DNA of 64,000 bases from a virus (Duplodnaviria; Heunggongvirae; Uroviricota; Caudoviricetes). The notes beneath the pieces were generated by a model. The model worked only from the letters and a program-made list of their open reading frames with translations. It did no database searches and was not told the DNA's origin. The position numbers and the translations under genes were made by a program. The stretch's first letter is position 1. Each line of letters opens with the position of its first letter. The stretch is from the IMG/VR virus record IMGVR_UViG_3300011904_000029, positions 6,312 through 70,311 of that record. One strand, 5' to 3'. Shown here piece by piece: positions 1-9,915 of the stretch.

Positions 1-9
1 ACATTAAAA

Positions 10-198
10 CTAATCTTTTAATTCGTCTTGCATTTCTACTGGAGCTACGAAGTAAATATTGTTTCCTAACCCATTACGATCTGCTAATTTATTGAATTTA
101 ATACAATCCTTTTCAGCATTTTCTTTTGAATAATATAAATGATCAATTGAATCTGAATCTTCCCCAATATTTTTTACTCTGATTTCATAAATCTTCAT
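10..198 (-). CDS. hypothetical small protein
   Basis: 62-aa minus-strand ORF with GGAGG-like RBS; no recognisable motif. Confidence 0.35.
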   Translation of the reverse strand: MKIYEIRVKNIGEDSDSIDHLYYSKENAEKDCIKFNKLADRNGLGNNIYFVAPVEMQDELKD

Positions 199-232
199 AT
201 TAAAATCCTCCTTTTATTTTTCTTATATGTAT

Positions 233-427
233 TTATTTAATATTTAAATCTAATTCTGAAATATGGTATATCTGAACGGGCGATGGTTGCTTGTGATTAT
301 GTTTCGGAAATCTAACTTCGTCCACTTTTAAATCTCGATAGCTCTCTTGCTCATCCCAGTAACCAAAGTCACTGTCTAAACTACCAGTCCACCTACCTAG
401 ACCATCTTTAAGTAATGCTTGTCTCAT
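233..427 (-). CDS. hypothetical small protein
   Basis: 64-aa minus-strand ORF, start overlaps stop of downstream DHFR gene (translational coupling). Confidence 0.35.
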   Translation of the reverse strand: MRQALLKDGLGRWTGSLDSDFGYWDEQESYRDLKVDEVRFPKHNHKQPSPVQIYHISELDLNIK

Positions 428-933
428 TTATTAATCCTCCTTTCGTATGTAACGAATGAATAATCATAAGGGTGGTTTGCGTCTTTCTTGTGTTTTTCGT
501 GACTAGTAATCTTAAAATCATCTAAACTATATTTAGGAAAATATACGTCAGTATCGGAAAAACGATGTGAAACAATAGTTAGATAGATTTTATCTGTATG
601 TGGCAGAAATCTCTTATAGACCTGTTCCCCACCACACACGAATAATTCTGTATCTTTGTCGGCGTGATTGTAATAGTGTTGTAGGATTAATTCTGCTGAG
701 TTATATATGTAAAGATCTGGATGAAAATCAATGTCTCCGCTTTTTGATAAGATTAAATTTGTCCTGTTTGGTAAAGGTTTTCCGATTTCCTGGTATGTAC
801 GCCTTCCCATTACTATTACATTCTGTTCAGTTAAACTCTTAAACCTCTTCATGTCATTTGGTAAGCGAATTAATAATTTACCATTGTGCCCGATTGCAGC
901 GTTAAGATCACAGCAAGCTATGATATTAATCAA
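424..933 (-). CDS. folA: dihydrofolate reductase
   Basis: 169 aa; N-terminal IIACCDLNAAIGHNGKLLIRLPNDMKRFK and VIVMGRRTYQEIGKPLPNRTNLILSK match DHFR substrate/NADPH-binding motifs. Confidence 0.85.
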   Translation of the reverse strand: MINIIACCDLNAAIGHNGKLLIRLPNDMKRFKSLTEQNVIVMGRRTYQEIGKPLPNRTNLILSKSGDIDFHPDLYIYNSAELILQHYYNHADKDTELFVCGGEQVYKRFLPHTDKIYLTIVSHRFSDTDVYFPKYSLDDFKITSHEKHKKDANHPYDYSFVTYERRINK

Positions 934-2576
934 ATAATCTCCTCCTTATATTCTCCATTATAGTATTTCTCCATTGAAAATCTGTCGTCCTTTATCTGCA
1001 CTCTATATGAATTTAATTTGCTTTTTATGTATTCATATTTCTCTTTATCGGTTGCTATATGGTAAGGAACAACAATTAGTTTAATCCCCAATTCATTGCA
1101 TAGTTTTTTCTTTAATCTATCTCTTCTTTTACTTTCTTCAAATTCTGAATAGTGTTTGTGAAAGTACTCTATATATCTATAATGCTGTTCTCCGTTATAT
1201 TCTAGTGCAACTCTTAATTCTTCGTTGTACATATCTAGTTCAAGGTAATTTTTAATACCATTATACTTATTATTTAATAGCGTTCTGTTTTTGTAAAACA
1301 CTTTATTTGTAAGTTTTTCTATAATGAATTTGCATTTTGTTTCATTTTTAAATCTGCCAGTACAAATTTGACACCAAGTACCTGAAAACACGCTATCTAG
1401 ATTTAACTCGAATATATGATCATTCGCACACACCCATTGTAGTAACTGCTTAGAATCAGTGTAATACTCATAAGGTGTTAAAAGCTTCCCGTGATTTTTT
1501 TCTAGAAAAGAAAGTATTCTTTCATAAGGAATTCTCCTTTCGTCTAAGGTACATTCTTTACAGCTTCTCATTCCCTTAAAATTACCTGCGGAGCATTCCC
1601 AATTATGATTATTAGGGCATAAAAACCTATACTTTTTAAATTGACCTTTGTATTCACTCGGAGTAGACAGTAGTTTATAACCCCTATCTACGGCAACTTT
1701 TTTTAACCTATAATACTCCAATATTCCCCTCTTATTATCATTACACTCTCTACACCATCTTTCATCTTTGCGAACCAAGTCATTAGCACTACGATCAAAT
1801 ATATGACCTCTGCCACATATCAACTTAACTCTGGTTGTACTATCTAAAAGTGTATGATTTTTTGTCAACACTTGACCACCTTTATATCTAGCCATCCGTT
1901 TAATATTCACCCATGATAACTTCTGTATTATTTTAGGACTAATCTTTGTCTCAACCAGTCTTCTTTTTTCATCTTCTTTACATTGACTACACCACGTTGC
2001 ACCAAATTTTATATTGTAAAATGAATCCTCCCATACGTGCCCATTTTCACATTTCCATAAAAGAATATCTTTTTGATTTCCTTTATAACTTTCTGATAGG
2101 CACTCACCACCTTTATTTCTTGCAAACTCTTTAACTTCTTCAATTGTATGTCTCAATTTTTGAAGATAGCATTCGTAACACCAATATCCAGACTTTAAGT
2201 TATTTAGGTTTATTTCATATTTGTGTCTCTCTCCACAAACTATCTTCAATTTCGTGTGTGCATTTTCGTAATCCTCTTTAGGAGACAATACTTCTCCACC
2301 TTTTGAACTCACTATTTCACAGAATTCGTTGTAATATTTTGTTATCAGTTTTTCTTTGTTGTTTTCTTTCCTACATTCTGGGCATCCTTTAATTTGCTTA
2401 AAAGATCCCCACGATGTTTTAAGCTCTCCATGTTTTAAACAACTGTATTTTACTACCCATTTATTACTGCCATTAAATTTCTCCCAAGAATGATTAACAT
2501 ATTTAAGACCAACACCGTTACACACATCAATGATTTTGTCTTTTTTAAGACGGGGAGCACCCACTCTCATAAGCAA
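930..2576 (-). CDS. free-standing homing-endonuclease-like protein: tandem zinc-ribbon repeats plus C-terminal PD-(D/E)XK-like nuclease module (paralog family 1 of 3)
   Basis: 548 aa; about six repeats of the pattern C-x2-C ... W-x-C-x-N/E-G-H; C-terminal LEYNGEQHY...RD..K...C.ELGIKLIVVPY block shared with ORFs 13736..14569 and 43898..45400; sits between DHFR and thymidylate synthase genes. Confidence 0.55.
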   Translation of the reverse strand: MLMRVGAPRLKKDKIIDVCNGVGLKYVNHSWEKFNGSNKWVVKYSCLKHGELKTSWGSFKQIKGCPECRKENNKEKLITKYYNEFCEIVSSKGGEVLSPKEDYENAHTKLKIVCGERHKYEINLNNLKSGYWCYECYLQKLRHTIEEVKEFARNKGGECLSESYKGNQKDILLWKCENGHVWEDSFYNIKFGATWCSQCKEDEKRRLVETKISPKIIQKLSWVNIKRMARYKGGQVLTKNHTLLDSTTRVKLICGRGHIFDRSANDLVRKDERWCRECNDNKRGILEYYRLKKVAVDRGYKLLSTPSEYKGQFKKYRFLCPNNHNWECSAGNFKGMRSCKECTLDERRIPYERILSFLEKNHGKLLTPYEYYTDSKQLLQWVCANDHIFELNLDSVFSGTWCQICTGRFKNETKCKFIIEKLTNKVFYKNRTLLNNKYNGIKNYLELDMYNEELRVALEYNGEQHYRYIEYFHKHYSEFEESKRRDRLKKKLCNELGIKLIVVPYHIATDKEKYEYIKSKLNSYRVQIKDDRFSMEKYYNGEYKEEII

Positions 2577-2591
2577 ATAACTCCCCCGATT

Positions 2592-3377
2592 CTATATGCT
2601 CACACGCATTTTAATATGCGGATGATATTTGTAATCTAGTAATTTGACATCTTGTTCAGTAAAGTTATAAAAGTTATTAATCTCGGTATTAATAAATAAT
2701 TCAGGAGCCTTATAGGGCTCACGATTAAATATTTCTTGAATTGGTTTAAATTGCTGCTCATACAAATGAGCGTTGGTAAGAACAAATATCATTTTACCTG
2801 GTTTTAATTTTGTTACTTGCGCCAACATATGATTTAATACTGCCATCTGAGCAACATTGAAAGGCAAACCAAGCGCAACATCTGAGCTACGAATTGTTAC
2901 GTGCGTATTGAGATGATCATTGTTCACATCCCATATTGAATTAAACATACATGGAGTTAATTGCATCTTATCTAAATCTTCACATTGCCACAGGTTTACC
3001 ATCATTCTTCTTGATTGATTATTATATTTGAGATCGCTGATAAGTTTATCCATTTGACTATGCTTTTCAACTTGTCTTCCATATGCCTCGCCAATAGTAT
3101 TAAATTCGTCTGTCCACTCGTCCCAAATATGAATATTTCTTTCTTGCAGCCATGTTACATCATTTGATTGAATCTGATATATCCATCTCATCTCATTTAC
3201 TAATGACTTGAAAGGTGTGTATTTTAAAGTTAACATTGGGAACTCTTCTTGCAGATCGACAGTGATCACCTTTCCAAAAACTTTTTTTGTATTGTCTGCC
3301 GTTCTATTTTCTCCATAATATCCGTTGTCTAAGATATCTTTGACTAAAACTCTATACTGTAAATCAAAATTACTCAT
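2592..3377 (-). CDS. thyA: thymidylate synthase
   Basis: 261 aa; FPMLTLKYTPFKSLVNEMRWIY, IHIWDEW, LTPCMFNSIW (catalytic Cys region) typical of ThyA family; adjacent to DHFR. Confidence 0.85.
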   Translation of the reverse strand: MSNFDLQYRVLVKDILDNGYYGENRTADNTKKVFGKVITVDLQEEFPMLTLKYTPFKSLVNEMRWIYQIQSNDVTWLQERNIHIWDEWTDEFNTIGEAYGRQVEKHSQMDKLISDLKYNNQSRRMMVNLWQCEDLDKMQLTPCMFNSIWDVNNDHLNTHVTIRSSDVALGLPFNVAQMAVLNHMLAQVTKLKPGKMIFVLTNAHLYEQQFKPIQEIFNREPYKAPELFINTEINNFYNFTEQDVKLLDYKYHPHIKMRVSI

Positions 3378-3402
3378 ATATCCATCCTCCTGTATTTATA
3401 AT

Positions 3403-3430
3403 AAAAGGTAAGAGGAATCAACCTCTTACC
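3403..3430 (-). terminator. intrinsic terminator (9-bp GC-containing stem GGTAAGAGG / CCTCTTACC, 6-nt loop, followed by U-tract on minus strand)
   Basis: perfect inverted repeat 3407-3415/3422-3430, plus-strand AAAA at 3403-3406 gives UUUUAUU on minus strand; lies between upstream small gene and thyA. Confidence 0.55.
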
Positions 3431-3433
3431 TAG

Positions 3434-3462
3434 ATAATACTAATTTATTTCATTAATGTCAA
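3434..3462 (-). promoter_or_regulatory. sigma-A-type promoter TTGACA-17-TATTAT (member of conserved promoter family)
   Basis: minus-strand reading TTGACAttaatgAAATAAATtagTATTAT; -35 at 3457-3462, -10 at 3434-3439. Confidence 0.55.
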
Positions 3463-3670
3463 TGATTATTTATAATTTATTTAATAAATTCGTTATTTTA
3501 TTTTTGGTTTTTTGATTGATGCTTTAATCTTACTTCCTAGCCAGACAAAAGTAATCTCAGTCTTTGGATTAGATCCAATATGTTCAACTTGACCAAACTT
3601 TCTAGGAATCAATGACCATAAAATAAGAGCTACTTTACCCAATTGCCACTCACCTCACTTTTATTCCGAA

Positions 3671-3895
3671 CTACGCATGAAATTCGCTATTAAAACCCAT
3701 CGACTTATAAACCCTCTTTAGTTGTTCATAAGTCATCACATCAATCGTATTTTGTAGTAACTCACGCAATTCTCTTTCTTTCAGTACTTCCAATTTTTCA
3801 AAGGATTGACTGCCGCAGCCACGGCATTTTTCACCAACATACTGCTCTCTTCCGCATCCGAGACAGCAATAATTTTTAGGCTTACTTTTATACAA
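3671..3895 (-). CDS. small zinc-ribbon protein
   Basis: 74 aa with CxxC...CxxC (CLGCG...CRGCG). Confidence 0.4.
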   Translation of the reverse strand: MYKSKPKNYCCLGCGREQYVGEKCRGCGSQSFEKLEVLKERELRELLQNTIDVMTYEQLKRVYKSMGFNSEFHA

Positions 3896-3951
3896 ATTTA
3901 CACACCCCCTTTACTTCACAGTCGTATCTTATACACAATAAATTATCTGCT

Positions 3952-4668
3952 TTATCGTTTAGATTGTCTTTCAATCTCAGCTTTCAATTTCGGTTCTGGT
4001 GGAGTCCATCCTTCAGGCTTAATGATTTTTCCGTCACTTTCTCTGAATTTAGGTTGTCCATTATGAAGTTTTGCCATATTAGCATCTTGAACAATTTTAA
4101 ATAGATTAAATGGCTTTACCCCTAAAATAGTAAATGATCCCTGGTTGAAGTATTCAACATCAGTAAGCGCATCTGCTTGAGCAGTAAGAATGTCATCAAC
4201 TGGCTTTGCTTCTGTAACTTGCTTTTCTACTGCTGCGGAAATACCACTATTAAATTCATCGACTAACTTCTTAAATTCTTCTGTATTGCCACCTACGGTA
4301 GCATATAATAATTCCACTAATTCTTCCCCTGTCCACACAGCGCGGTTTAGTGCCGTTTCTTTATCCATAGGTGTTGGTTTTTCGTTGTAAGGATGGTTGA
4401 ATGCTTTGTGAAATTCCTGCACCATCCAATACATCTCATTAGGATTGTATTTTTTAGTTCTTCTTTTAGGTTTGCGATAGGGTGAAAGGTATTTGGTTTC
4501 TACATTTCTTAACTCAGTAACTCGTCTTTGCTTTTCTCTATCAAACTCAAGAATGAATTCAACTTGTGCTGTTTTACCCATATCTCTACTAAATGAAATA
4601 AGCTTCCCTTTTCTTTTACTTGATTTATCCCAAACCAGGCTGTTTAGTTGTAGTTTTTGATTTTGCAT
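3952..4668 (-). CDS. MazG-like all-alpha nucleoside triphosphate pyrophosphohydrolase (putative)
   Basis: 238 aa; segment WMVQEFHKAFNHPY...TGEELVELLYATVGGN resembles MazG/HisE EExxE-type metal-binding helix; located in nucleotide-metabolism cluster. Confidence 0.4.
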   Translation of the reverse strand: MQNQKLQLNSLVWDKSSKRKGKLISFSRDMGKTAQVEFILEFDREKQRRVTELRNVETKYLSPYRKPKRRTKKYNPNEMYWMVQEFHKAFNHPYNEKPTPMDKETALNRAVWTGEELVELLYATVGGNTEEFKKLVDEFNSGISAAVEKQVTEAKPVDDILTAQADALTDVEYFNQGSFTILGVKPFNLFKIVQDANMAKLHNGQPKFRESDGKIIKPEGWTPPEPKLKAEIERQSKR

Positions 4669-4738
4669 TAGTATATTTCCCCTTTGTATGTAAATTTATT
4701 TTAGATAAGAGAGGAGAATTAACTCCGCTCTATGTGTA

Positions 4739-4987
4739 TTAATTTAATTTATTAATGATCTCGTCTAATCCGTTTGGATTAAAGCCAACTACACGCTGTA
4801 CCTCTTCATCATTGTCATCAATAAGGATAGTTACTGGAACTGAACCAATATCATATTGGGCTGCAATTTCTGGATTATCCATTGGATTAATTTTTTCAAC
4901 AATCACACCTTTGTCATCTAGATAATTTTGAACCATTTGACATGGTTTACAACCTGGTAGCTCAAATTTAAATAGTTTATTAGACAT
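4739..4987 (-). CDS. nrdH: thioredoxin/NrdH-like redoxin
   Basis: 82 aa with CKPC redox motif near N-terminus; immediately upstream gene order redoxin-NrdI-NrdF-NrdE. Confidence 0.55.
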   Translation of the reverse strand: MSNKLFKFELPGCKPCQMVQNYLDDKGVIVEKINPMDNPEIAAQYDIGSVPVTILIDDNDEEVQRVVGFNPNGLDEIINKLN

Positions 4988-5405
4988 ATATTTTCTCCTT
5001 TACTATTTCGTCAAATTGATAAAAGTCACTTTGCTTTGGATATCCTTCAAACTTAAATTTAAACAGTATTTGATTTTTGTCTTTTAATACCTCTTCTAAC
5101 AAATCTAATGCCCCACAGAAAAATTCAAACTCCACTCTTCCGCTTCCAAATAGTCCGATCTTTTTATGAGTAAGCATTCCAAGTTTATCCCTTATTTCAA
5201 AAAAAGGTCTTGGGGGAATACCTCTCCCCCAGGTGGATGTTCCAAAAATAATCGTATCGTATTTATCAAAATCAATATTTCTCTCTTTTCTTATATTAAA
5301 AATATCAAACTCACTTTCATTAAAATACTTTAACATTGCCCTTGTATTTCCTGTTGCAGAATAGTATATGACAGCTTTAGAGGTCAAAGTCTTCGCCGCT
5401 TTCAT
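4980..5405 (-). CDS. nrdI: NrdI flavodoxin-like ribonucleotide reductase stimulatory protein
   Basis: 141 aa; AVIYYSATGNTRAM flavodoxin FMN-binding signature; start may be slightly downstream because the first codons overlap the nrdF 3-prime end. Confidence 0.7.
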   Translation of the reverse strand: MKAAKTLTSKAVIYYSATGNTRAMLKYFNESEFDIFNIRKERNIDFDKYDTIIFGTSTWGRGIPPRPFFEIRDKLGMLTHKKIGLFGSGRVEFEFFCGALDLLEEVLKDKNQILFKFKFEGYPKQSDFYQFDEIVKEKIYV

Positions 5406-6468
5406 GAGTATAGTTAATTGCGTTAGCTTGGAGAAAATCTGTTCTTGTTACAATTTCATCTTCTCCTCCTGTTCTCTTTTTGCTTCCATATGTAGCAATC
5501 CATCTTGACTTTAATTCTTGGTTTTCAGGATAAGGTTCTTCGAGTCCTGCGTTTCTACAGATTAAGTTGGCTAGATATTCCACGTAATCATGATATTCTT
5601 TAATGGATAAAGTATCTATTCCTTCAAAAATGTAACTAGCCCATACTTTTTCTCGTTTAACAGCCTCTTTTATATAATCCATAACATAATTATAATTATC
5701 TTTTGTGGCTAACTGCGGCTCTTCTTTCATTAGAATTTGAATCAGCATTCCATAAAAAGTCGAGTGCATATTTTCGTCAGTCCGAATCATAGAAATTAAG
5801 TTATTAGAGCCAATCATTTTTTGATCCCTTGCCAGAGAGTGGAAATAAACAAATCCCCCACTAAAATAAATTCCCTCTAAGACAAGGTTAGCTACGATTC
5901 CATAAAGAATATCTTGAAGTACCTCATTAGAAACTCCACCTTCATCTTGTTCAGCCATATATATCTTCGCAGCATCGACCATTTTTTGAATCGGATCAAT
6001 TACAAGTTGATTCCTATACACTAATTCAGGAATATTTCTTGTAAATTCAAATGCTTGCTCCTTCTCTTGTTGATTTAATACAGTGGACGTTAAGTATTGA
6101 TAACTTCGATTATGCAATTGTTCAAATGATGCAATCATAGAAATTACCGATCTAACTGATGAATCGGTGCATAAATAACCTAAAACAAAATTAAAGTCTG
6201 TTGCAATAGAATCTAACCAGTTTAATTTACCTGATATAATGTTATATACTTGTCTTTCTCTTGGCGTAAGTTTTTCTCTATACTCCTCAATATCCTTAGA
6301 CAGTTTCACCTCATCTTCTATCCAGTACTCTGCAAATAAAGACTTATTAAAATCGAGCATTGTAGGATACTTGATATTATCCCAATCTCGTATCCCACTT
6401 GATTTCCCCCCAAACACTTTTGTTGCTACGTTGCTTGCTTCTCCATCGTAAATCCGAAAGTTTGCCAT
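5377..6468 (-). CDS. nrdF: ribonucleotide reductase class Ib beta subunit
   Basis: 363 aa; diiron ligand region LVLEGIYFSGGF...IRTDENMHSTFYG, acidic C-terminus ...ESGEDFDL. Confidence 0.85.
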   Translation of the reverse strand: MANFRIYDGEASNVATKVFGGKSSGIRDWDNIKYPTMLDFNKSLFAEYWIEDEVKLSKDIEEYREKLTPRERQVYNIISGKLNWLDSIATDFNFVLGYLCTDSSVRSVISMIASFEQLHNRSYQYLTSTVLNQQEKEQAFEFTRNIPELVYRNQLVIDPIQKMVDAAKIYMAEQDEGGVSNEVLQDILYGIVANLVLEGIYFSGGFVYFHSLARDQKMIGSNNLISMIRTDENMHSTFYGMLIQILMKEEPQLATKDNYNYVMDYIKEAVKREKVWASYIFEGIDTLSIKEYHDYVEYLANLICRNAGLEEPYPENQELKSRWIATYGSKKRTGGEDEIVTRTDFLQANAINYTHESGEDFDL

Positions 6469-6488
6469 TATTTTTATCTATCCCTTCT

Positions 6489-7889
6489 TTATGCTTCACA
6501 CATAATACAGTCTTCGTCACGCTCATATTCTTCTGTGTATGTATAATAAATAGTCTTAAGTTGCTTCTTCCATGCTCCAAGATCTAATCTTAGAAGTTCT
6601 GAGCCTTTGATTGATTTAGGCACGTGCATATTATGACTTACTCCCTGATCTATGAATTTTTGTGCTGCTGAAATTACATTAATTGCCCACATTTCATCCA
6701 TTTCAAATCCTGACTTATAGAACCATTTTGTTTGATTATTGTAGTTTGAAGGAACATAAATTACGTTCAGCCCAGACTTTTCTTCCCGATATATGACCTC
6801 ATATGGAGGGTCAATTGAAGGTGAAGAGTTCATAATCAATGAGTTTGAGCTTGTAGGCGCAATTGCGCTTAAATAAGCATTTCTCATTCCTTTGCTTGCT
6901 AAATCACGAAGTTCACTCCATTCATCAGAAACAAAACCTCGCTTATCAAAGAACTCTCCGGTTTGCCAGTCAGAACCTTCGAATAATGGATACGATCCTT
7001 TTTCTTGTGCTAATTTAGCTGAAGCTCTAATCATTGCTTTTAAATACTGTTTAAAAATGTCTTCAGTAAACTTAGACGCTTCTTCAGACTCCCATCTAAT
7101 ACCTCTAGAAGTCATTAGTGTAACCAATCCCATAGACCCTGCACCTACTGCTCTATAAAGCTTGTTAGTGTGCGTGGCTTGAGGTACAACAGTCCGATTC
7201 AGTGAAATTACGTTATCTAACATACGAAATTGGATATCAACAACACGTTGCAAATCAACATCCTTAGATTCATCAAATACATTATTCAAGACTAAAGATG
7301 AGAGGTTGCAAGTTACTAAACCATCTCCTATAACTTTCGTAACAACAAAGCCATCTTCATCTAAATTCTCAGATATACACCTATCAACTTCCATATTTTG
7401 TATGACCTCACTACAGAGGTTTGATCCAAAAGGCATCCCAACATGTGCATTCGGGTTCATCCTTGCTGCTGTATCATGGAAGTATAAATAAGGAGTACCA
7501 CCAGTTTTTCTTGATGTAAAAATAGACTTGTAAATATCTGTAGCATTAACCACTCGTTTAATTTCAAACGACATATCTTTTTCTGCCTTGCGATACCAAT
7601 AGGTAAAGGCATGATCTTCTTCATTCGGTTCTTCATCAGCCATTAACTTTTTCTTATCATAAAGACGATTCAAGTCAACACCCATCTTCTTCCTGAATTC
7701 ATAAGGATCAAAGATTGTCCAGTTTTGCTTAGATTCTAATCTTCTCATGTACTCATCAGGAAGAGTAACTGCTGTTTTAATTGAATGCGCCCTAAGTTCT
7801 TGAGATCCTGTTTTTAAGCGTAAGTCTAAAAAATCAAAAATATCATAATGCCATACAGGTAGGTATAATGCGATTCCTGCAACTCTTGA
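6489..7889 (-). CDS. nrdE: ribonucleotide reductase class Ib alpha subunit, exon 2
   Basis: contains AGIALYLPVWHYDIFDFLDLR, SNLCSEV active-site motif, C-terminal CxxC tail; exon start placed after intron terminal G at 7890. Confidence 0.85.
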   Translation of the reverse strand, partial: SRVAGIALYLPVWHYDIFDFLDLRLKTGSQELRAHSIKTAVTLPDEYMRRLESKQNWTIFDPYEFRKKMGVDLNRLYDKKKLMADEEPNEEDHAFTYWYRKAEKDMSFEIKRVVNATDIYKSIFTSRKTGGTPYLYFHDTAARMNPNAHVGMPFGSNLCSEVIQNMEVDRCISENLDEDGFVVTKVIGDGLVTCNLSSLVLNNVFDESKDVDLQRVVDIQFRMLDNVISLNRTVVPQATHTNKLYRAVGAGSMGLVTLMTSRGIRWESEEASKFTEDIFKQYLKAMIRASAKLAQEKGSYPLFEGSDWQTGEFFDKRGFVSDEWSELRDLASKGMRNAYLSAIAPTSSNSLIMNSSPSIDPPYEVIYREEKSGLNVIYVPSNYNNQTKWFYKSGFEMDEMWAINVISAAQKFIDQGVSHNMHVPKSIKGSELLRLDLGAWKKQLKTIYYTYTEEYERDEDCIMCEA

Positions 7890-8946
7890 CAAATTTGTTA
7901 CTACCTTATTAAAAGGCGGATAGGTCATTTCTGCCTATCTCTCTATGTCGCCATAGAGTTCAGACTATATCTTCTTGTGCGTGTGGTTATAAAAATTTAT
8001 TTTATATAATATGTATTTCTTTATTATGTAGTTCCATATGACATTCGAAGCATAATGTCTGTAAGTTTTCCTCTTTATTTGCTTCATTAATATCGTCAAA
8101 CTCCTCTATAGGAATTATGTGATGAACATTTAGTGCGTACTTTTCATAACTTTGAGTGTTGCAAATTTGACAAGTATAATTATCTTTTTTGACTTTTCTT
8201 TCTCGTATTCTTGACCACTTACTTCCATATCTATTTGGATTTTCTCTAGAAAACTGTCTATTTACACATCTATTTGAACAATATATTCTTTTATTTGACG
8301 GAACTGTAAAAGAAGGTCTTTCAAATTCCTTTTTGCAACAATAACATATTAATTTAATTGTATTTTGTTCGTTAGCAATATTGATACATTCTTGTGAGCA
8401 ATAGCTTATTTCTTTCCTATCTGCCCAAAACTCTTTATCACATACCTTACAGTTTAAATTATGTTTGTTTTTTCTACATAAATCAGAGCAATAATTACCG
8501 TCTTGTTGTATTCTCTGCTTAGCAATTTCAAACTCTTCTTTGCAATATTTACAATTAACTTTGACTTTTTTTGAGTTAATTGCTCCTAATTTAGCACTAC
8601 ACTTATGTGAGCATGTTCGTTTGGATCGCTCTCTTTTATTTTTTATATTTACTGTAAAAATGCTTTCACATATCTCACATTCCTTATCAACATATTCTTT
8701 TACTCTAGGTATTTATTATTCCTCCCTTGATCGCAACCACACGCACAAGTTTGGTTCGAGTTATAAAATTACTCTTATAACTACTTAGTCGTTGAACCTT
8801 CTACCTGGGAAACCAGGAAGCTCGGCTGCGAATTGCCCGCACTCTTGGGTTTTTAGGGTTCGCCGTGTCATTACTGCACGGTATCCTACCTTGAGATACT
8901 CGGGGTTCCCCGCAATTGACCAATTTTATACTCGGCTCATAAGTTA
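7890..8946 (-). mobile_element. group I intron interrupting nrdE, with embedded HNH endonuclease ORF
   Basis: exon 1 reads ...YVNQLG then stops; exon 2 resumes SRVAGIALYL (conserved YVNQxGxRxGAxAxYL block reconstituted); 5-prime exon end ACUCGGU pairs with internal guide GCCGAGU (U-G at splice site); intron ends with G; GC-rich structured core at 8760-8945. Confidence 0.7.
8002..8712 (-). CDS. intron-encoded HNH homing endonuclease with N-terminal zinc-ribbon repeats
   Basis: 236-codon open frame with C-terminal CQICN...HHIIP...NLQTLCFECHMELH HNH motif; preceded by GGGAGG RBS and TAATAA; no in-frame ATG/GTG/TTG near 5-prime end (first codon ATA). Confidence 0.65.
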   Translation of the reverse strand: MPRVKEYVDKECEICESIFTVNIKNKRERSKRTCSHKCSAKLGAINSKKVKVNCKYCKEEFEIAKQRIQQDGNYCSDLCRKNKHNLNCKVCDKEFWADRKEISYCSQECINIANEQNTIKLICYCCKKEFERPSFTVPSNKRIYCSNRCVNRQFSRENPNRYGSKWSRIRERKVKKDNYTCQICNTQSYEKYALNVHHIIPIEEFDDINEANKEENLQTLCFECHMELHNKEIHII

Positions 8947-9915
8947 ACCGAGTTGATTTACATATTCAGCTAGTACACTACTTAATCGTGATGGATGGAG
9001 AATTCCTGTTGCACGTCCTTTATATCCTCGAATCCATGAACCACTTGCGCGAAGGAACCCTAAATACTTCCCAATTCCTGCACCATTTTGACTAAATCTT
9101 GCTGTTTGTTCTAGGCTATTCATAATACTGATCAAATCATCATCAGGAGTAATAATGTGACATGATGACAATGTTCCGTGAGGCGCACCCGAACTCAGTA
9201 AAGTTGGTGTAGCTAATCCTACATAATGATTAGATAAAGCCCAATATGCTTCTTTTACTAACTCCATTCGCTTGGACTTCTTCTCATCTTTCATAAGATA
9301 GAGAGCAGAGGTTAAGAATCGCTCTTGTGGTAATTCTAAGACCTCGCCATTATAGCCCTTTTTAAGATAAGTATTGTTAAGCATGTAGAGTCCAGCATAG
9401 CTAAATTTTTTATCCTTTTCTTTTTCGATAAACTTTCCTGCTTTATTTAATTCTTTTTCAGTATATTGCTCCGTCAAGCTTTCATCATAAATGCCTTGCT
9501 CAACCATTTGAACAACAAAAGAGTAATAATCACCATAACCATTTTTATAATCAAAGCCCCTATTTTTAGACGCTTGCTTATACATCTTCCTCCTCAAAGT
9601 TGCTGCACTTAAATATGTGAAGTCTGGAGTTGACGGAGATATACAGTCATTTGAAAATCTAATAATCAAATCAAACAACTTGTCTGCCTCAAGTTTTTCC
9701 TTGGAATAAACGTAGTCGAATACATTTGCTCGGATTTTATTTAGAATATCTTTGTCGTATTCTTTCTCTGAATCTGTAATGATTTCATGGAAGAAGCGAT
9801 CAAACCTTTCTTCCATGAAATCTGATTCTTGAATGTGTGATTTTCTATCTTTAGTAATAACCGTCAAACAACTACACCCTTTCAGTCTTAAATTTGGTAA
9901 TAATTTATTTTGCAT
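8947..9915 (-). CDS. nrdE: ribonucleotide reductase class Ib alpha subunit, exon 1
   Basis: ATPTLLSSGAPHGTLSSCHII (radical-transfer Cys loop) and FTYLSAATLRRKMY; ends at 5-prime splice site. Confidence 0.85.

Follow-up and report, generated by a model that had tools for sequence, protein, structure and literature searches.

A 1057-nucleotide (nt) insert in a gene for the alpha subunit of a class I ribonucleotide reductase (RNR) is, with a probability of about 0.93, a mobile group I intron similar to those of subgroup IA. It lies at positions 7890-8946 on the minus strand of the window, the whole 64,000-nt stretch analysed here (positions 6,312 to 70,311 of the IMG/VR record IMGVR_UViG_3300011904_000029, a virus of the Caudoviricetes), and it carries an open reading frame (ORF) for an HNH homing endonuclease. 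The continuity of the exons, the covarying ribozyme architecture, the HNH domain, the common insertion site and the presence/absence polymorphism are established. A preliminary description, made from the letters of the window, had proposed a group I intron with an HNH endonuclease splitting the RNR alpha gene, and this is backed by RNA structure, covariation, matches to Rfam, the Pfam HNH match and the distribution of the insert among relatives. The split gene consists of the following parts.

8947..9915, minus strand: exon 1 of the class I RNR alpha gene, 323 codons ending ...EYVNQLG; its last 7 nt, ACUCGGU (8953-8947), are the 5' strand of P1.
7890..8946, minus strand: group I intron, 1057 nt, starting with UAA (an in-frame stop for exon 1) and with its terminal G at 7890.
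6489..7889, minus strand: exon 2 of the RNR alpha gene, 466 codons and a stop, starting SRVAGIALYLPVWH.

The first ORF (8944-9915, minus strand) ends ...AEYVNQLG with GGT at 8949-8947, directly followed by the TAA stop at 8946-8944. The second part starts TCA AGA GTT (SRVAGIALYLPVWH) and runs from 7889 down to 6489. Segments 8947-9915 and 6489-7889 join in frame to give a protein of 789 amino acids (aa) with the Pfam domains Ribonuc_red_lgN and Ribonuc_red_lgC, the latter covering profile positions 1-523 of 523 (E 6e-124). The alignment of the joined protein with PDB 7agj_A (E 2e-142) is gapless over the junction (yvnqlgsrvagialylpvwh). A peptide of 159 aa spanning the junction corresponds to single unbroken stretches of 477 nt in the Bacillus phages BCP78, TsarBomba, Bastille and others, at 75% aa identity or less, and matches the intron-less IMG/VR contig L007 at 88% aa identity. 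Because the joined protein aligns without gaps to intron-less homologues, the exon boundaries are fixed to the nucleotide. The only ambiguity is a one-base T/T slide that gives an identical messenger RNA, and the rules of a U·G pair at the 5' splice site and a terminal G pick 8946 and 7890. The preliminary description had these points right: the two minus-strand ORFs are the N- and C-terminal parts of one alpha subunit, exon 1 ends YVNQLG, exon 2 resumes at SRVAGIALYLPVWH and the insert terminates in a G (G7890).

The same site is occupied in some relatives and empty in others. Related introns at the same NQLG|xR boundary were found in Brochothrix phage A9, Lactococcus phage AM1, Staphylococcus phage PB50 and the contigs L084, L089, L108, L109/L110 and L112. 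The introns of A9, L084 and L089 have no ORF; those of AM1 and PB50 have homologous HNH genes inside. Intron-less alleles are found in relatives (L007-L010 and the BCP78-type phages), among them the closest relative found. The RNR of the metagenomic contigs L108, L109/L110 and L112 is of the same NrdA-like type as that of the window, and L108 has the identical SRVAGIALYLPVWHYDIFDFLDLRLKTGSQE context. The exon tract CAACUCGGU is common to the intron-bearing NrdA-like alleles and A9, whereas the intron-less alleles use different synonymous codons, for example CAGCTTGGT, CAATTGGGT and CAAACAGGA. This sharing of the exon tract would fit a constraint from P1, co-conversion or both. The DNA of the window and L108 is about 71-72% identical, continuously through exon, intron, endonuclease gene and nrdF, and the element has therefore been present in the lineage for some time.

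The preliminary description had named the host gene NrdE, and this part of it was not supported. The class Ib NrdE model TIGR04170 gave 306.6 bits against a cut-off of 750, and the best matches were to generic or NrdA-like alpha models. The best model was NF006665 at 776 bits and the best structure match PDB 7agj (Aquifex NrdA). The general NrdE_NrdA model TIGR02506 is passed (446 bits, cut-off 341), with both the all-alpha and the barrel domain present (Pfam lgN and lgC). A NrdI partner was not found, the adjacent flavodoxin matching generic flavodoxin models only. Judged by these model scores the host gene is an NrdA-like class I RNR alpha subunit and not a demonstrable NrdE, and the name that can be defended is "class I RNR alpha subunit".

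The insert can be laid out as a complete group I ribozyme. The parts of the RNA, all on the minus strand, are as follows.

8930..8939, minus strand: internal guide sequence; GCCGAGU (8936-8930) forms P1, and UGA (8939-8937) forms P10 with UCA of exon 2.
8751..8923, minus strand: 5' half of the core, comprising P3-5' UUGGU, P4, P5/P5a/P5b, P6/P6a, J6/7 with P7-5', P7.1 and P3-3'.
8795-8786, minus strand: J6/7 and P7-5', UCAACGACUA.
8782-8759, minus strand: P7.1 hairpin of 8 base pairs (bp), between P7 and P3'.
8755-8751, minus strand: P3-3' ACCAA, pairing with UUGGU.
8734..8749, minus strand: 5' strand of P8, CUUGUGCGUGUGGUUG, forming a 16-bp stem with 7974-7989.
7974..7989, minus strand: 3' strand of P8, UAACCACACGCACAAG.
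7961..7973, minus strand: J8/7 and the 3' strand of P7, AAGAUAUAGUCUG, the conserved 'S' element; its UAGUC pairs with GACUA (8790-8786) to form P7.
7890..7958, minus strand: 3' peripheral domain with P9 (GCGA tetraloop), P9.1 (conserved CAGAAAUGA loop), P9.2, the tail UAGUAACAAAUUUG and the terminal G.

Helices P1 to P10 could be placed, including the P3/P7 pseudoknot, so that the P3-P7 core on which the preliminary description had staked its proposal is present. P1 is formed by ACUCGGU (8953-8947) and GCCGAGU at intron nt 11-17 (8936-8930), with the wobble pair U8947·G8936 at the 5' splice site; a guide of this sequence 10 nt into the insert had been predicted, and the pairing is confirmed. 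P10 joins UCA (7889-7887) to UGA (8939-8937). P4 pairs UGCGGG with UUCGCA, and P7 consists of GACUA and UAGUC plus CA and UG across a bulge. The 3' strand of P8, J8/7, the 3' strand of P7 and P9-P9.2 are all contained in 7890-7989, and the ORF sits in the loop of P8. A GC-rich core at 8760-8945 had been described earlier. The contrast is real, with 45% GC in the 5' core (8713-8946), 28% in the endonuclease ORF and 32% in the whole window; the extent was too small, as the core also includes 7890-7989. With the ORF deleted the RNA has a folding energy of -113 kcal/mol (z = -7.0), and its minimum-energy structure recovers P1, P4, P6a, P7.1, P8, P9, P9.1 and P9.2. Within the 64-kb window, the conserved elements GUUCAACGACUA and AAGAUAUAGUC are found nowhere but in the intron, with a single copy of each.

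Relatives for a covariation analysis came from blastn, which gave an ORF-less core 86% identical in the Lysinibacillus phages LysYB1 and LysYB2, and from a pattern scan of IMG/VR, which gave L037, L084 and L089. The introns of relatives end in ...GUAACAAAUUG or ...GUAACAGAAUG. Seven sequences were aligned with MAFFT: the window and AM1, both minus the ORF, L084, L089, A9, LysYB2 and L037. P8, P9.2 and P6a were out of register in this alignment and were excluded from the pair count, P8 being examined separately. The count covered 61 pairs in 12 helices, among them P1, P3, P4, P5, P5b, P6, P7, P7.1, P9 and P9.1. In these, 92.4% of the positions were paired, compared with 33-40% when slid, and none of 500 shuffles reached any of the five measures. 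More than half of the pairs (32 of the 61) change on both sides. The compensatory changes are mostly located in P3, P5b, P7.1, P9 and P9.1; P3 has changes on both sides in four of its five pairs and P4 in one pair. P7 is invariant, as expected of the guanosine-binding helix. The position of P7.1 between P7 and P3' is a trait of subgroup IA, and this hairpin covaries at eight of eight pairs. P1 holds at seven of seven pairs in the five same-site introns, with a C-G to G-C compensation that tracks the Leu codon. In the six endonuclease-bearing members (the window and five others) P8 is a stem of 10-16 bp made of unrelated sequences that always brackets the ORF.

Searches with the Rfam covariance model, which had been suggested as a check on the insert, were positive in part. 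A focused search with RF00028 Intron_gpI gave two partial matches in the insert, one at 8652-8956 (31.1 bits, E 9e-6) covering P1 and P3-P6 through GUUCAACGACUA and one at 7941-8050 (24.3 bits, E 1e-3) covering AAGAUAUAGUCU and P9. The two half-core matches are separated exactly by the endonuclease ORF. Both are below the gathering score of 50 bits, and scans of the whole window at the gathering threshold and at E <= 0.1 were empty, the half-core matches coming from the focused search only. The low score is attributed to the 744-nt P8 loop with the ORF, which splits the core so that the model cannot span it. ORF-less relatives pass 50 bits: L037 with 68.8, LysYB2 with 58.2 and the same-site intron of L089 with 52.5.

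The sub-threshold Rfam score is one of several points that weigh against the interpretation as a mobile group I intron. P10 comprises just 3 bp in a row, or 6 of 7 if one mismatch is allowed. P2 was not identified and a second hairpin of the P7.1 type (P7.2) was not found, for which reason the assignment to subgroup IA is approximate. The case for splicing comes from structure. The endonuclease ORF lacks a canonical start, and its present-day mobility is uncertain.

If the intron works as its structure suggests, the transcript would fold into the P1-P10 ribozyme, and an exogenous guanosine would attack after U8947, held in P1 by the U·G wobble with the guide GCCGAGU. The 3'-OH released on exon 1 would then attack after the terminal G7890, aligned by P10, and ligation of ...NQLG to SRVAG... 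would give the intact 789-aa enzyme. The predicted spliced junction is ...CAACUCGGU|UCAAGAGUU..., corresponding to ...AAUCAACUCGGU|UCAAGAGUUGCA.... The 16-bp P8 stem would close a 744-nt loop holding the 236-codon gene, whose role in mobility is suggested by homology. Four tandem Cys4 zinc-ribbon modules would form the presumed DNA-recognition array and the C-terminal HNH domain the nuclease. In a mixed infection the enzyme would act on alleles that lack the intron, nicking or cutting them close to the NQLG|SR codon boundary, and recombinational repair would copy the intron, with some of the flanking exon, into the cut allele.

The endonuclease gene has the following features.

8002..8712, minus strand: homing endonuclease ORF in the P8 loop, 236 codons with TAA at 8004-8002; four CxxC...CxxxC zinc-ribbon modules followed by HNH.
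8020..8172, minus strand: HNH (beta-beta-alpha-metal) domain, residues 181-231; Pfam PF01844 with 38.6 bits against a cut-off of 21.4.
8721..8726, minus strand: Shine-Dalgarno-like GGGAGG, 8 nt upstream of the ATA codon.

The Pfam match agrees with the HNH endonuclease first read from the letters. The four modules upstream of the HNH domain have the pattern CxxC-x(15-19)-C-x3-C. Fifteen homologues with 43-61% identity were found, and all of those with readable context are located between RNR alpha fragments. The invariant residues of the family include H197, H198, N216, H225 and C181/C184/C221/C224, and all 33 of the 33 invariant residues are intact in the window ORF, among them all of the Cys and the His and Asn of the HNH domain. 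The AlphaFold model (pLDDT 87.2) has the appearance of beads on a string, with small zinc modules each made of a beta-hairpin and a helix, followed by the beta-beta-alpha nuclease. The best PDB match of the HNH fold is 5h0m, an HNH enzyme of phage GVE2 (profile E 1e-6, Foldseek probability 1.0). Pfam and PDB sequence searches with the zinc-ribbon repeats gave no significant family, only a weak L24e-like match (E 0.07). The family is annotated in several genomes, and as far as found it has not been characterised in the literature.

One feature that the preliminary description did not notice is the absence of a canonical start in the HNH ORF. The frame begins with ATA (8712-8710) right behind TAA TAA. 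There is no ATG, GTG or TTG in its first 225 codons, and the sole in-frame one further downstream leaves fewer than 12 codons; the ORF is missing from the ORF list because it has no such start. Homologues start with ATG (L108, L109, L112), TTG (L111) or GTG (L113). In alignment the ATA falls on the start codons of L111 (TTG) and L112 (ATG), and a conserved PRVK follows in both. It may be either a weak start behind the strong GGGAGG or the result of a very recent start loss.

In the second case the intron would still splice and the endonuclease gene would be dead, a mutation of ATG or TTG to ATA having ended its translation; the element would then be a passenger that can no longer move and has just entered the degeneration phase of the homing cycle. 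This is a serious possibility, although it is held to be short of probable. The lack of ATG, GTG and TTG, the exact coincidence of the ATA with the start codons of L112 (ATG) and L111 (TTG) ahead of the conserved PRVK, and the ORF-less same-site derivatives in A9, L084 and L089, by which the lineage is seen to lose the gene, all point in its direction. Yet no stop interrupts the 236 codons of the frame, whose GC content is 28%, the full set of invariant residues has been kept and the GGGAGG is strong and ideally spaced. AUA is a low-level initiation codon in bacteria. In the genome of Staphylococcus phage Twort (NC_007021, L107; 8842-9573) the RefSeq coding sequence (CDS) of the HNH endonuclease of nrdE intron 2, TwortORF052 (I-TwoI of the literature), is likewise annotated from ATA, which makes the reading as a weak start plausible; the Twort enzyme is called functional in PMC3653736, which cites Landthaler 2002.

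A bolder reading of the same gene is that it represents an uncharacterised architecture of homing endonucleases, in which four tandem Cys4 (TRASH/L24e-like) modules read the target and the C-terminal HNH domain acts on it, the AUA start being deliberate and keeping the nuclease at a low level. This is put forward tentatively and is rather unlikely as a whole. If it were true, and if the modules each read a few bp, the family would be a naturally modular, re-targetable nickase scaffold.

The remaining alternatives concern the insert itself. It is very improbable that the intron is a decayed remnant incompetent in splicing and the RNR alpha gene a pseudogene. The score of the window, when taken alone, below the Rfam gathering score would agree with decay, but all core helices and the J6/7, J8/7 and P7 elements are intact and paired, both exons are open and conserved and the downstream genes for the beta subunit, the flavodoxin and the thioredoxin-like protein are intact. 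Still less credible is a gene that is split and not spliced, with a free-standing endonuclease gene between two RNR alpha fragments that assemble after translation. Such a case is on record for nrdA/mobE of Aeromonas phage Aeh1 (PMC3653736), and ORF finders can prolong exon 2 to 7928, where there is an in-frame ATG (7928-7926). This ATG is, however, within the conserved P9.1 loop CAGAAAUGA, its counterpart in L108 is out of frame or stopped (a stop codon follows directly), a complete covarying ribozyme flanks the ORF, and the break falls within the contiguous catalytic barrel domain. A restart at the ATG 7926-7928 (minus strand; P9.1 loop CAGAAAUGACC) was rejected as the beginning of exon 2; it is not conserved in L108 and adds 13 spurious codons (6489-7928). 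An intein is excluded by the many stop codons that the insert has in the exon frame, the first of them at its very start, and a group II intron by the lack of a gene for a reverse transcriptase or maturase and by a core of group I.

Downstream of the alpha gene, at 4739-6468 on the minus strand, are genes for the RNR beta subunit (5377-6468), a generic flavodoxin (4980-5405) and a thioredoxin/glutaredoxin-like protein (4739-4987). The operon resembles nrdEF-I-H by layout and not by model scores. The carrier phage is Bacillus-type and Herelleviridae-like; no close phage genome was found for the locus by megablast. A promoter/terminator scan gave 11 sites, compared with 10.6 expected by chance, and no terminators.

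Other interruptions were seen in the RNR genes of relatives. L108, a Logan SRR29257492 contig, has a second intron upstream (2797-3890), after ...GAGIGK, with a different endonuclease (HNH_3/NUMOD4); the window has no insertion there. The nrdE of L089 contains, besides the NQLG-site intron, an unrelated second group I intron (3296-3533; Rfam 84 bits) about 400 nt further downstream. The IMG/VR contigs L011 and L012 (3001-3354) match the junction peptide from residue 42 onward only, which suggests that their alpha genes may have another upstream interruption near ...GIGKYLGF.

Unannotated introns with a similar core were also found outside the RNR genes. In LysYB2 (L001, OP628076.1; 3428-3772) and L037 (2646-2969) a group I intron (58.2 and 68.8 bits) directly follows the annotated CDS of the major capsid protein. 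The core of these capsid-gene introns is 86% identical to that of the window intron and the guide region differs. A short downstream frame (PVLYAPKKWMRFRNIKAELYNGVI*) resembles the missing C-terminal exon of the capsid gene, and a free-standing HNH gene is next. A convincing U·G P1 and 5' splice site were not found for the capsid introns of LysYB2 and L037. In Alicyclobacillus phage KKP_3916 (L003; 3501-3558) an 87% match to P7-3', P9 and P9.1 of the intron falls between two hypothetical genes, where nothing is annotated, and probably marks a further group I intron missing from the annotation. The occurrence of the same core in major-capsid genes with a different guide would make the family useful for studying how introns are retargeted.

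For annotation, the RNR alpha gene would be intact once spliced and should be given as one joined CDS, and not as two fragments and a 'hypothetical' or HNH gene. The deposited AM1 and PB50 sequences and the LysYB capsid gene call for the same correction. In AM1 the nrdE fragments and introns are not annotated as one spliced gene, and the HNH ORF (L005, 2531-3193) runs through J8/7 and P7-3', its stop being the UGA of UAGUCUGA, so that the CDS overlaps the catalytic core.

Among known systems, group I introns in phage RNR genes are established, some of them with HNH endonuclease genes (PMC3653736, PMC1865063, PMC2248736); those reported include Twort nrdE, A9 nrdE and nrdF, and SPbeta nrdE (PMC3653736). 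The A9 nrdE intron agrees with that of the window in its insertion point (...NQLG | QR...), in the exon strand ACUCGGU of P1 and in a homologous P9.1 and 3' tail (79.8% over 87 nt). It differs in being 327 nt long without an ORF, with a short P8 and a different P5 extension, and its host gene, unlike that of the window, is a class Ib-type nrdE with a flavodoxin gene upstream (annotated 'putative ribonucleotide reductase subunit'). Intron 1 of Twort nrdE is one codon upstream of the window site (NQG|GKR) and has no endonuclease. I-TwoI, the Twort HNH endonuclease, is in intron 2 at a different, downstream site, and its N-terminus has by eye no evident similarity to the zinc-ribbon array of the window; it is a member of another protein family.

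The nearest counterparts of the endonuclease-bearing form are AM1 (gp159), PB50, L108, L109 and L112, with homologous HNH genes between RNR alpha fragments at the same insertion site, none of them annotated as an intron. HNH identity to the window is 37-40% in the phages AM1 and PB50 and 53-61% in the metagenomic contigs. In L108, L109 and L112 the ORF is in the same P8 loop. All five differ from the window in having ATG, GTG or TTG starts, and the host genes of AM1 and PB50 are, unlike that of the window, of the nrdE type.

More distant parallels share the combination of intron and HNH enzyme. The RB3/T4 nrdB intron with I-TevIII is likewise a phage RNR group I intron with an HNH endonuclease and a zinc-finger DNA-binding domain (PMC1865063); it differs in its host gene (the beta subunit), in the phage group and in a dimeric enzyme with two CX2C...HX3C fingers, whereas the window protein has four Cys4 modules. 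The DNA polymerase introns of SPO1 and SP82, with I-HmuI and I-HmuII, are also Bacillus Herelleviridae group I introns with an HNH nicking endonuclease, differing in host gene and DNA-binding architecture. Their ORF is looped out of P8 too. In the nrdIEF operons of the B. cereus group, group IA introns occupy several conserved nrdE and nrdF sites, some with endonuclease genes and with signs of horizontal spread (PMC2248736); the characterised endonuclease there, I-BthII, is of the GIY-YIG type, and the hosts, unlike the window, are chromosomal or prophage.

Set against these systems, the element is of a kind already known, and the A9 intron is its homologue in both core and site. RNR genes are known hot spots for homing introns in Firmicute phages, and the element extends this pattern by one lineage. 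A single intron family is seen to interrupt NrdE-type as well as NrdA-like enzymes at one codon boundary. Only two features are mildly unusual, the ATA start and the array of four zinc-ribbon modules, and they offer modest leads on the regulation of homing endonucleases and on their recognition of DNA.

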